DNA of 64,000 nucleotides from Escherichia coli (lineage in GTDB: Bacteria > Pseudomonadota > Gammaproteobacteria > Enterobacterales > Enterobacteriaceae): the NCBI RefSeq assembly GCF_003334335.1, contig NZ_QOWQ01000001.1. The stretch is one strand, 5' to 3'. Position numbers and translations under genes: made by a program. Within the stretch, counting starts at the first letter, position 1. Every line of letters starts with the position of its first letter. The notes under the pieces are model-generated. The model was not told where the DNA came from. It made no database searches and worked only from the letters and a program-made list of their open reading frames with translations. Shown here piece after piece: positions 9,510 to 11,258 of this stretch.

Positions 9510-9980
9510 ATGAAAACACAACGTGGTTATACGCTGATTGAAACGCTGGTCGCGATGCTGATTTTGGTCATGCTAAGCGCAAGTGGACTCTATGGCTGGC
9601 AATACTGGCAGCAGTCGCAACGGCTATGGCAAACCGCCAGCCAGGCGCGGGACTATTTGCTCTATTTACGTGAAGATGCCAACTGGCATAACCGCGACCA
9701 CAGTATCAGCGTTATCAGGGAGGGGACGTTATGGTGCCTTGTGAGTTCCGCTGCTGGGGCCAATACCTGTCATGGCAGTTCACCATTGGTCTTTGTGCCA
9801 CGCTGGCCCGAAGTCGAAATGAGCGACCTGACACCTTCGCTTGCTTTCTTTGGCCTGCGCAATACCGCATGGGCCGGGCATATTCGCTTCAAAAACTCAA
9901 CGGGCGAGTGGTGGCTGGTGGTTTCGCCGTGGGGAAGACTCCGGCTTTGTCAGCAAGGAGAAACAGAAGGATGCCTGTAA
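9510..9980 (+). CDS. ppdA: Prepilin peptidase-dependent pseudopilin PpdA
   Basis: 156-aa ORF with N-terminal prepilin-type motif ([11 protein letters not shown]). Confidence 0.85.
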
Positions 9981-10534
9981 AAGAGCAAGGTTTTTCTCTG
10001 CTGGAAGTGTTGATTGCTATGGCGATCAGTAGCGTATTGTTGCTGGGGGCGGCACGCTTTCTGCCTGCGTTACAGCGTGAAAGTTTAACGAGCACCCGTA
10101 AGCTGGCGCTGGAAGATGAAATCTGGCTGCGGGTATTTACCGTCGCGAAGCATCTCCAGAGGGCGGGTTATTGTCATGGCATCTGTACCGGCGAAGGGCT
10201 GGAAATTGTCGGACAGGGTGACTGTGTCATTGTGCAGTGGGATGCGAACAGTAACGGTATCTGGGATCGCGAACCGGTAAAAGAGTCCGACCAGATTGGA
10301 TTTCGTCTGAAGGAGCATGTGCTGGAAACGCTACGCGGTGCGACATCCTGTGAAGGTAAGGGCTGGGATAAAGTCACTAATCCGGATGCCATCATTATCG
10401 ACACTTTTCAGGTCGTACGTCAGGATGTCAGCGGCTTCTCGCCGGTGTTGACGGTTAATATGCGTGCTGCCAGTAAGTCTGAACCGCAAACCGTGGTGAA
10501 TGCCAGCTATAGCGTGACAGGATTCAACCTGTGA
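9971..10534 (+). CDS. ppdB: Prepilin peptidase-dependent pseudopilin PpdB
   Basis: Internal ATG at 9971 of ORF 9731..10534 (prepilin motif [11 protein letters not shown]); 10-bp overlap with ppdA. Confidence 0.8.
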
Positions 10535-10938
10535 ACCGCGAAAAGGGTGTTTCGTCACTGGCTCTGGTCCTGATGCTGCTGGTTTTGGGTAGTTTGCTAT
10601 TACAAGGAATGAGCCAACAGGATCGCAGTTTTGCCTCTCGCGTGAGCATGGAAAGTCAGTCATTGCGCCGCCAGGCCATCGTTCAGTCGGCGCTGGCGTG
10701 GGGAAAAATGCACTCCTGGCAGACGCAGCCAGCAGTTCAGTGCTCGCAGTACGCTGAAACCGATGCCCAGGTTTGTTTGCGTTTACTGGCAGATAATGAA
10801 GCCTTATTGATTGCCGGTTATGAAGGCGTTTCGTTGTGGCGAACAGGCGAAGTCATTGATGGAAACATTGTTTTTTCGCCACGCGGCTGGAGCGATTTTT
10901 GTCCGCTGAAAGAGAGGGCGTTATGTCAGCTTCCCTGA
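10531..10938 (+). CDS. ygdB: Conserved protein YgdB (DUF2509)
   Basis: 135-aa ORF with GTG start overlapping ppdB stop; hydrophobic N-terminus. Confidence 0.75.
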
Positions 10939-11246
10939 AGAATCAACAAGGCTTTAGCCTGCCGGAGGTAATGTTGGCGATGGTGTTGATGGTGATGATT
11001 GTCACTGCGTTATCGGGTTTCCAGCGAACATTAATGAACAGTCTTGCCAGCAGAAACCAGTACCAACAGCTCTGGCGGCATGGCTGGCAGCAAACGCAAC
11101 TGCGCGCGATTTCGCCACCTGCCAACTGGCAGGTCAACCGAATGCAGACATCGCAGGCGGGATGTGTCAGCATCAGCGTTACGCTAGTTTCACCCGGGGG
11201 CAGAGAAGGCGAGATGACCCGCCTGCATTGCCCGAATCGTCAGTAG
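10923..11246 (+). CDS. ppdC: Prepilin peptidase-dependent pseudopilin PpdC
   Basis: Internal ATG at 10923 of ORF 10899..11246 (prepilin motif [11 protein letters not shown]). Confidence 0.75.
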
Positions 11247-11258
11247 TCAGGAGCCGCT

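Follow-up and report, generated by a model that had tools for sequence, protein, structure and literature searches.

The 64,000-nucleotide stretch of Escherichia coli DNA analysed here (the 64-kb window) carries, on the plus strand, four short genes for pilin-like proteins followed directly by recC. According to the ORF listing and the raw sequence, these are ppdA (9510-9980; 156 aa), ppdB (9971-10534, ATG at 9971; 187 aa), ygdB (10531-10938, GTG start at 10531; 135 aa, DUF2509), and ppdC (10923-11246, ATG at 10923; 107 aa). The ORF listing and the RefSeq annotation agree on recC (11259-14627, plus strand; 1122 aa), which encodes the gamma subunit of exodeoxyribonuclease V. The stop/start overlaps given in the initial annotation are exact in both the listing and the raw sequence, namely 10 bp for ppdA-ppdB, 4 bp for ppdB-ygdB, and 16 bp for ygdB-ppdC, as is the 12-bp gap between ppdC and recC. 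A strain with 100% identity over 9300-11300 bears identical coordinates and names in its RefSeq annotation, and the window is collinear with this annotated strain save for a 220-bp indel in a tRNA-Met array. The ppdA-ppdB-ygdB-ppdC unit is a well-known E. coli operon.

The same overlaps bear out the earlier description of a compact cluster and support translational coupling. Each overlap, accompanied by an upstream Shine-Dalgarno sequence (for ppdB, AAGGAG at 9955-9960), would couple translation of one gene to that of the next, and coupled translation would in turn fix the stoichiometry of the four subunits.

This arrangement is not due to chance, because all 5426 complete E. coli genomes carry the stretch, the order ppdA-ppdB-ygdB-ppdC-recC is kept in all 80 Enterobacteriaceae species loci, and the junctions across these species are nearly invariant (-10 or -7, -4, -16, and, in most, +12). 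The upstream neighbor is thyA in every species locus that reaches far enough. All four ORFs are intact in the 80 species, and codon-position identity follows 2 > 1 > 3 in all four genes (0.72-0.78 at position 2 and 0.43-0.54 at position 3), a pattern that indicates purifying selection on the four proteins. Neither the cysteines nor the Gly at the cleavage site varies among orthologues. PpdB evolves fast, being 48-72% identical outside Escherichia; for a genome scan, an alignment of 41 PpdB sequences proved too divergent, and the 11-sequence alignment used instead gave matches in Enterobacteriaceae only.

Such conservation bears on the proposal that E. coli keeps these genes as relics without function, only for the recC promoter and spacing contained in their DNA. 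We consider this very unlikely, since the ORFs remain intact throughout the 80 species, the stretch is present in every E. coli genome of the set, the codon-position pattern reflects selection on proteins, and the cysteines and cleavage-site Gly do not vary, even though the fast evolution of the proteins, PpdB among them, and the lack of a Shine-Dalgarno sequence before ppdA are what one might expect of relics. Natural transformation of E. coli via the pilus machine discussed below has likewise never been shown, even with Sxy over-expressed (PMC3330819), and this too favors decay; for a recC promoter, in contrast, the final ~100 nt of ppdC would be enough.

Pilin features of the four proteins

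PpdA, PpdB, and PpdC carry class III signal peptides, that is, a short basic leader ending in Gly, followed by F/Y/M at +1, Glu at +5, and ~20 hydrophobic residues, which bears out the earlier observation of a prepilin motif in three of the four proteins. With the cleavage site marked by a slash, the N-termini read MKTQRG/YTLIE in PpdA and MPVKEQG/FSLLE in PpdB, and the cleavage motif of PpdC is /FSLPE. All three match Pfam N_methyl (PF07963; E values of 5e-7, 1e-8, and 2e-6, respectively) and, above its cut-off, TIGR02532. 'Prepilin peptidase-dependent protein' is the annotated name, the cleavage and N-methylation being predicted.

The N-terminus of YgdB, MNREKG/VSSLA, has Ala, not Glu, at +5, and against Pfam the protein gave no N_methyl match, DUF2509 alone being found. 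Across 80 orthologues Gly6 is invariant, the hydrophobic helix is conserved, and Glu5 is absent. Judged by its sequence, this N-terminus follows the Glu5-less pattern of GspK and PilX and not that of canonical pilins.

All four proteins match NCBIfam equivalogs well above cut-off, among them NF007800 for PpdA (249.6 bits), NF007848 for PpdB (326 bits), and NF007660 for PpdC (217 bits). PpdB also falls in the precomputed Pfam family PF27121 'PpdB', and PpdC matches Pfam T2SSppdC alongside N_methyl. The NCBIfam match to GspH is weak and N-terminal, as is that of PpdB to GspJ; where the GspJ/PilW and GspI/PilV classes are concerned, NCBIfam matches of both PpdB and PpdC cover no more than the N-terminal helix. 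Sequence searches of the PDB, including a profile search with the PpdB alignment, gave matches confined to the N-terminal helix, and hhalign comparisons with K-12 GspG-K and PpdD aligned only this helix and assigned no class.

The AF2 model of PpdA (pLDDT 86.7) comprises a helix spanning residues 9-60 and a sheet, and its top ten Foldseek matches in the PDB are all EpsH/GspH, FimU, or XcpH (probability 0.99-1.0, TM 0.5-0.63). On the strength of this model, PpdA is a GspH/FimU-class member of a minor-pilin quartet. YgdB is predicted with high confidence to adopt a pilin fold, its model (pLDDT 91.2) consisting of a helix at residues 2-60 and a 5-stranded sheet. Foldseek retrieved no PDB match for the YgdB model; the solved structures nearest to the model are minor pilins, GspI and GspK among them. 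Both models possess the alpha-beta 'lollipop' fold, in which a long N-terminal helix packs on an antiparallel sheet. By size and analogy, we infer that PpdB is GspJ/PilW-like and that PpdC, the small minor pilin of the set, is GspI/PilV-like.

In Pseudomonas aeruginosa FimU-PilV-PilW-PilX and in the GspH-I-J-K tip of type II secretion systems (T2SS), four pilin-like proteins are likewise encoded together. The Glu5-less member is PilX or GspK in those systems and YgdB in the E. coli cluster, and the structural matches of the models (FimU and EpsH for PpdA, GspI and GspK for YgdB) extend the likeness. The systems differ in gene order, which is H-J-K-I-like in the E. coli cluster versus H-I-J-K, and in the size of the Glu5-less subunit, YgdB having 135 aa versus 327 aa for K-12 GspK and lacking the inserted alpha-domain. 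Unlike these comparison systems, the E. coli cluster includes no PilY1-like adhesin or PilE gene and stands apart from all machinery genes.

The region upstream of ppdA

The intergenic region holds an intrinsic terminator of thyA (9344-9376, plus strand), an 11-bp stem formed by AGAGCCGACGC / GCGTCGGTTTT that runs into a T-tract. None of 200 shuffles was as stable as its fold (-16.6 kcal/mol, z = -3.0), and the stem and T-run are kept in 68 distinct Enterobacteriaceae intergenic sequences; a simple promoter and terminator scan missed this terminator and returned nothing useful on the plus strand. The thyA terminator is predicted to shield ppdA from thyA transcription.

Next comes a candidate CRP-S (Sxy-dependent CRP) site at 9388-9409 on the plus strand (TTC TTCGA GACGCC TTCCC GAA), with the half-sites TTCGA-N6-TTCCC at 9391-9406. 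The symmetric Haemophilus-type pattern TGCGA-N6-TCGCA, allowing up to two mismatches, had no match upstream of ppdA and fewer matches in the window than in shuffles, and the asymmetric E. coli motif TGCGA-N6-TTCCA (PMC6728893) was therefore used in its place. The candidate fits this motif, the E. coli copy with two mismatches and the 68-sequence consensus as T[T/G]CGA-N6-TTCC[A/C]. Aligned to the CRP-S stretch in the ppdD promoter of K-12, it shows 27 of 45 identities without gaps (P ~0.0005 versus shuffles). Its center lies ~48 bp before the predicted ppdA transcription start, which is not the classical CRP position.

A candidate core promoter for ppdA occupies 9413-9441 on the plus strand, with TTGCAA (9413-9418) as a -35-like element, TGCAAC (9424-9429), and TAAATA/AATAGT (9434-9441) as a -10-like element; from these elements the start is predicted at ~9446-9449. 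This promoter has the second-best sigma70 PWM score on the plus strand of 9327-11300, and the TGCAA repeats are kept in 62-68 of the 68 sequences. A sigma54 reading of the TGCAAC-N4-TGCAA repeat was rejected, the GC-to-GC spacing being 10 rather than 11 and the -24 box lacking GG.

The ppdD and sxy promoters share this layout, a CRP-S site followed by a TTG -35-like and a TAAA -10-like element at offsets equal to those in ppdA, and in the ppdD promoter CTGCAACG stands at a position identical to that in the ppdA promoter. They differ in which half of the CRP-S site is better kept, this being the promoter-distal T[T/G]CGA in the putative ppdA site versus the proximal TCGCA in ppdD and sxy.

Directly before the ppdA ATG lies a conserved block, CAyACTGCCGnC (9498-9509, plus strand), in which A9499 and A9501 are invariant in 68 of 68 sequences and C9502 and T9503 are found in 65. 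Sigma32 and leaderless readings of its CAyACT portion were considered and set aside; the conserved CTCG upstream is not -35-like. The ppdA leader displays no conserved RNA pairing or consensus structure, and Rfam gave no match over 9200-11700 at E values up to 1.

These elements suggest that transcription begins past the thyA terminator, from a weak promoter with the CRP-S site ahead of it, and expression of the operon would therefore require both cAMP-CRP and Sxy/TfoX. The placement of the CRP-S site in this scheme derives from sequence comparison and Sxy induction from the literature, in which Sxy regulates the operon and ppdA is the most strongly induced gene (PMC12616744, PMC1635313). Induction by Sxy together with cAMP-CRP is attributed in PMC12616744 to Sinha et al. 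2009 and Jaskolska & Gerdes 2015.

The pilus machine and its relatives

No gene for a secretin, a pilus ATPase, or a prepilin peptidase is annotated in the 64-kb window, as first noted. The description of the genes as orphans does not hold, however, since the cognate machine is encoded elsewhere on the E. coli chromosome, with ppdD-hofBC, hofMNOPQ, and gspO as the partner genes in K-12. The cluster and the ppdD-hof-gspO genes have been assembled into a working PpdD pilus system, and the reconstituted systems used the cluster as the 'minor pilins' (bioRxiv 10.1101/856302; 10.1101/2021.04.14.439816).

Such a machine would consist of the major pilin PpdD, the ATPase HofB, the platform protein HofC, HofMNOP, the secretin HofQ, and the prepilin peptidase GspO/PppA. 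Within it, PpdA would act as the GspH/FimU-type subunit and YgdB as a small Glu5-less pilin like GspK/PilX, with PpdB and PpdC as their putative GspJ/PilW-like and GspI/PilV-like partners. Extrapolating from the GspHIJK and FimU-PilVWX systems, cleavage by the prepilin peptidase would be followed by formation of a tip or priming complex of the four subunits in the inner membrane; the Glu5-less YgdB would sit on top of this complex, and PpdD would polymerize onto it.

A close counterpart is Haemophilus influenzae comNOPQ (HI0938-HI0941). Its four small genes resemble those of E. coli in size, precede recC, and share its orientation; the operon is likewise CRP-S/Sxy-regulated and begins with a prepilin-type gene. 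Cameron & Redfield treat the two clusters as orthologous, no BLAST similarity being detected between them (PMC1635313), and the same location and operon organization have been reported for both (PMC12616744). Orthology is based here on synteny and size, the Pasteurellaceae side being known from the papers. The comNOPQ genes are experimentally required for DNA uptake, whereas the E. coli cluster has no such known phenotype. Given the reported Sxy induction of the operon and the Haemophilus requirement (PMC1635313, PMC12616744), the view that the function of these genes is poorly defined is outdated.

The label 'pseudopilin' also needs revision, because the way the cluster is regulated, like its orthology, indicates a type IV/competence pilus and not type II secretion, for which K-12 has its own gspH-K. 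Were the proteins orphan type II secretion pseudopilins, they would be spare GspH/I/J/K-type subunits for the Gsp secreton and not for a pilus, an assignment that we regard as extremely unlikely. A full gspG-K set is already present in the K-12 gsp operon, the cluster is flanked by thyA and recC and never adjoins gsp genes in the 80 species, and no gspC-O-type machinery genes occur in the 64-kb window. Furthermore, Sxy co-regulates the cluster with ppdD and hofM-Q, its position is equivalent to that of comNOPQ (PMC12616744, PMC1635313), and the ppdA promoter resembles that of ppdD. Against these points stand the Pfam name of the PpdC domain (T2SSppdC), the weak N-terminal NCBIfam matches to GspH and GspJ, a PpdA fold that matches EpsH as well as FimU, and the ability of the Klebsiella T2SS to assemble PpdD, as given in references within PMC3330819.

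The ppdC-recC junction

The 12-bp gap between ppdC and recC holds the recC Shine-Dalgarno sequence AGGAG (11249-11253, plus strand), 5 nt before the ATG at 11259, the GGAG of which is invariant in 80 of 80 species. A terminator scan and RNA folding (z = +0.97) revealed no terminator or structured RNA at the junction, and read-through into recC is therefore possible. In published accounts the unit is written ppdAB-ygdB-ppdC-recC and treated as one mRNA (PMC3936743), and recC is also described as its own operon (PMC12342828).

Within the codons of ppdC lies a promoter-like element for recC (11145-11173, plus strand), composed of a -35 element CAGACA (11145-11150), a 17-nt spacer, and an extended -10 element TGT-CAGCAT (11165-11173), with transcription predicted to start at ~11178-11181, which places the recC ATG 78-81 nt further on. 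In the 1.9-kb alignment of 80 species, the longest invariant run is TGTGTCAGCAT (11163-11173, 11 nt; the next longest is 5), and AGACA upstream of it (11146-11150) is invariant as well; TGTCAGCAT is part of the candidate promoter. Five third-codon positions in the two boxes are 100% conserved, versus 5.9% of ppdC third positions overall. The motif is missing where ppdC does not lie 12 bp from recC, though the peptide is retained, and promoter-like hexamers were read by eye in the 137-bp spacer that precedes recC in a relative. The PWM rank of the element is modest (18 of 9715), with 3/6 matches in the -10 hexamer and 4/6 in the -35 hexamer. The invariant stretch in ppdC appears to be an embedded extended -10 promoter of recC, and recC is therefore probably independent of the pilin promoter. 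Transcript mapping by Finch et al. in 1986 reportedly supports a recC promoter.

The initial annotation had coupled transcription of the cluster to recC, and had looked to promoters and terminators between them as the contrary evidence. The possibility of read-through survives, as no terminator separates ppdC from recC, but a single ppdAB-ygdB-ppdC-recC operon is at odds with the strongly conserved, computed -35/extended -10 element inside ppdC. A stricter proposal, in which a single promoter, that of ppdA, serves all five genes and read-through accounts for essentially all recC expression, is in our judgment distinctly unlikely. The ppd promoter is Sxy-dependent, and its regulon mates ppdD and hofM show essentially no expression in ordinary cultures (PMC1635313), while RecBCD is constitutive at a few molecules per cell (PMC12342828). 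The strong Shine-Dalgarno sequence in the 12-bp gap, the nearly invariant gap length in 80 species, the junction free of terminator or hairpin, and the operon notation (PMC3936743) would all accord with read-through, whereas the most conserved DNA of the cluster, synonymous positions included, is the promoter-shaped element ~80 nt before recC, and the hexamers in the 137-bp spacer of the relative point the same way.

With an embedded promoter, recC would receive two inputs. Induced transcripts may run from ppdC into recC, and a constitutive recC promoter near the end of ppdC, within its final 100 nt, would supply basal RecC for RecBCD while the pilin operon is silent. A known internal-promoter precedent resembles recC in having the weak constitutive promoter of a recombination gene inside the preceding ORF, no terminator, and two inputs. 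Unlike that precedent, the gene upstream of recC belongs to a functionally different, Sxy-dependent operon, and the putative recC promoter imposes full synonymous-site invariance on four codons family-wide. The dual input might itself be functional: Sxy-induced read-through would raise RecC, but not RecB or RecD (which lie behind ptrA with their own promoter), during DNA uptake and shift RecBCD balance or activity towards incoming DNA, making the comNOPQ-recC linkage in Pasteurellaceae a selected one and not an accident. We hold this last suggestion to be improbable.

Taken as a whole, the locus very probably encodes the minor-pilin set of a dispersed type IVa/competence pilus, expressed from a CRP-S-type promoter, with recC served by its own embedded promoter. 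Genes that seem to be orphans in a 64-kb window would then be parts of a dispersed machine, their identity revealed by a shared CRP-S promoter layout and by fold, not by their neighbors. What this adds to routine annotation is a basal recC promoter apparently written into ppdC, freezing four codons across a bacterial family. Operon calls that rest on a 12-bp gap would over-simplify recC control, and RecBCD levels could change when ppdC is deleted or recoded, for instance in a Keio-type knockout or a chassis strain.

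Protein identities and partner genes

The genes ppdA (9510-9980), ppdB (9971-10534), ygdB (10531-10938), ppdC (10923-11246) and recC (11259-14627) are all encoded on the plus strand and start with ATG, except for the GTG of ygdB. The same coordinates come from the ORF listing, from the raw sequence and from RefSeq; the figures given in the initial annotation, overlaps of 10, 4 and 16 bp with 12 bp left before recC, are therefore exact. The cluster is an already known, annotated operon. Its surroundings (9300-11300) are 100% identical in strain 720632 and several other strains and occur, at 95% identity or more, in 5426/5426 complete E. 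coli genomes searched. The window, E. coli chromosomal DNA, is collinear end to end with the annotated strain save for a 220-bp indel in the tRNA-Met array, where a single tRNA-Met (CAT) gene (26004-26080) stands against three tandem copies in the otherwise near-identical strain 720632, indicating copy-number variation in metZWV. A mechanical ORF (9731-10534, 267 aa) encloses ppdB and extends 240 nt further at its upstream end, and several database entries of 266-268 aa are evidently this long form of PpdB; the conserved start is the ATG at 9971, with a Shine-Dalgarno sequence and a class III signal peptide.

Three of the four proteins carry the prepilin motif, as initially noted. The class III signal peptides of PpdA (G/YTLIE, cleavage at the slash), PpdB (G/FSLLE) and PpdC (G/FSLPE) match Pfam N_methyl at E values of 5e-7 to 1e-8; YgdB (G/VSSLA) matches DUF2509 only. 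All four match NCBIfam equivalog models far above cut-off. The AlphaFold model of PpdA (pLDDT 86.7) finds only GspH-class structures in the PDB, namely V. cholerae EpsH and P. aeruginosa FimU and XcpH (probability 0.99-1.0, TM-score 0.5-0.63). The alignment of PpdB and PpdC with known pilins is limited to the N-terminal helix; by analogy, PpdB would be GspJ/PilW-like and PpdC GspI/PilV-like. YgdB, set aside initially, is modeled with high confidence (pLDDT 91.2) with an N-terminal helix of 60 residues lying on a sheet of five strands, a fold for which Foldseek returned no PDB match. Its N-terminus resembles that of K-12 GspK (RGVALLIVLMLLALM), Glu5 being missing from both, and its Gly6 is invariant in 80 orthologues. 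Given this predicted fold and N-terminus, the best reading of YgdB is that of a fourth minor pilin, one without Glu5. All four proteins are pilin-like.

The annotation of the 64-kb window contains no secretin, pilus ATPase or prepilin peptidase, in agreement with the initial annotation. The description of these genes as orphan pseudopilins nevertheless fails on both words. Partners are encoded elsewhere in K-12 (ppdD-hofB, hofMNOPQ and the prepilin peptidase gene gspO), and plasmids joining them with ppdA-ppdB-ygdB-ppdC assemble PpdD pili, the four products being labelled minor pilins (bioRxiv 10.1101/856302; 10.1101/2021.04.14.439816, citing Luna Rico 2019). The K-12 gsp operon carries its own gspH-K, which argues against a role for the cluster in type II secretion. 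Cameron & Redfield described four similar-sized 'prepilin peptidase dependent' genes adjoining recC in Enterobacteriaceae and Pasteurellaceae and treated the E. coli cluster as orthologous to H. influenzae pulG-HI0941, comNOPQ (PMC1635313). According to PMC12616744, DNA uptake requires comNOPQ, the position upstream of recC is conserved for comNOPQ and the E. coli cluster, and the E. coli operon is Sxy-regulated, ppdA being its most strongly induced gene. The cluster encodes minor pilins of a type IV/competence pilus whose partners lie elsewhere.

Conservation of the cluster

Scanning a single genome for each species recovered 80 loci, all from Enterobacteriaceae. The order ppdA-ppdB-ygdB-ppdC-recC is kept in 80/80, with thyA upstream wherever the locus extends far enough. 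The junctions are nearly frozen at -10 (sometimes -7), -4 and -16, and ppdC precedes recC by 12 bp in most loci (a few gaps of 13-17, one of 7 and one of 56; one further value stems from an HSP artefact); between thyA and ppdA there are mostly about 183-184 bp. Despite these frozen junctions the proteins diverge fast (PpdB identity outside Escherichia, 48-72%), mean nucleotide identity to the window being 0.61-0.68 for the four pilin genes versus 0.855 for the start of recC. Codon-position conservation follows 2 > 1 > 3 in all four genes, and the cysteines and cleavage-site glycine are invariant; the proteins are hence under purifying selection. The arrangement is not due to chance.

Linkage to recC is not universal. 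Metagenomic relatives outside Enterobacteriaceae show three other arrangements: the cluster with lgt-thyA, a retained linkage, and no recC (locus L090, from 6406 onwards); with dapD-yajQ and no recC (L086, from 6302 onwards, and L088); or followed by recC after a 137-bp spacer (L087, 6373-6509) that contains promoter-like hexamers.

Control of the pilin genes

A strong intrinsic terminator follows thyA on the plus strand (9344-9376; -16.6 kcal/mol, z = -3.0). Phylogenetic footprinting of the thyA-ppdA spacer over 68 distinct sequences revealed a candidate Sxy-dependent CRP site (CRP-S) at 9388-9407, TTnT[T/G]CGA-N6-TTCC[A/C]G, which fits the asymmetric E. coli motif TGCGA-N6-TTCCA (PMC6728893); a direct repeat of period 10, TGCAAC-N4-TGCAAC (9414-9429), conserved in 62-68 of the 68; an A/T-rich candidate -10 (9434-9441); and further blocks at 9450-9461, 9475-9478 and 9498-9509. 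The region aligns without gaps to the K-12 ppdD promoter (27/45 identities, P ~0.0005), where the second TGCAAC copy of the repeat (CTGCAACG) recurs at the same distance from CRP-S. This second copy is absent from the sxy promoter, in which TTG and TAAA elements are nevertheless spaced from CRP-S as they are upstream of ppdA. The first copy may serve as the -35 element of ppdA; a sigma54 reading of the repeat was rejected on spacing. With a simple sigma70 matrix, TTGCAA-17-AATAGT (9413-9441) ranks second on the plus strand of the region, and this rank and the shared layout would place a Sxy/CRP-dependent start near 9446-9449.

Conservation of the last block, CAyACTGCCGnC, runs to the base before the ppdA ATG; this start codon lacks a Shine-Dalgarno sequence. 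The -10-like CATACT of the block ends 6 nt before that ATG, which makes a leaderless transcript conceivable. Neither conserved RNA pairing in the ppdA leader nor an Rfam family in 9200-11700 (E up to 1) was found. For ppdB, ygdB and ppdC, a Shine-Dalgarno sequence lies within the gene before, as is classical for translationally coupled genes. Similarly tight coupling extends through ptrA-recB-recD, where recB and ptrA overlap by 8 bp (17684-17691) and recD starts on the last base of recB (21226).

The ppdC-recC junction

The proposal that transcription of the cluster is coupled to recC stands in part. Neither a terminator nor a stable hairpin was found between ppdC and recC, and a GGAG in the 12-bp gap is invariant, making read-through from the pilin promoter plausible; the unit has been written as ppdAB-ygdB-ppdC-recC (PMC3936743). 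Regarding elements that might separate the two, a conserved promoter-like element does lie within ppdC, which holds the most conserved DNA of the 1.9-kb cluster in the 80-species alignment. Positions 11163-11173 (TGTGTCAGCAT) are invariant in 80/80 species, the longest such run (the next is 5 nt), as is AGACA at 11146-11150. Five third-codon positions in these two boxes are 100% conserved, versus 5.9% of ppdC third positions invariant overall. Together they form a candidate plus-strand recC promoter (11145-11173) with a -35 CAGACA, 17 nt and an extended -10 TGT-CAGCAT, whose spacing would put the start at about 11178-11181, or 78-81 nt ahead of the recC ATG. Finch and colleagues (1986) reportedly mapped the 5' end of the recC mRNA to some 80 bp before the start codon. 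In the relatives with recC 137 bp away (L087) or missing (L086, L090), the DNA motif is absent although the encoded peptide G-C-x-[M/S]-V persists, placing the constraint on nucleotides and tying it to the compact architecture.

A promoter within ppdC would account for constitutive RecC production (PMC12342828) despite the silence of the Sxy regulon in normal cultures (PMC1635313). Most likely, judging from the aligned sequences, recC has its own promoter embedded in ppdC, besides any read-through. The depth to which this promoter is conserved within codons is the only, mildly, new element. Sxy-driven read-through could possibly tune RecC during DNA uptake.
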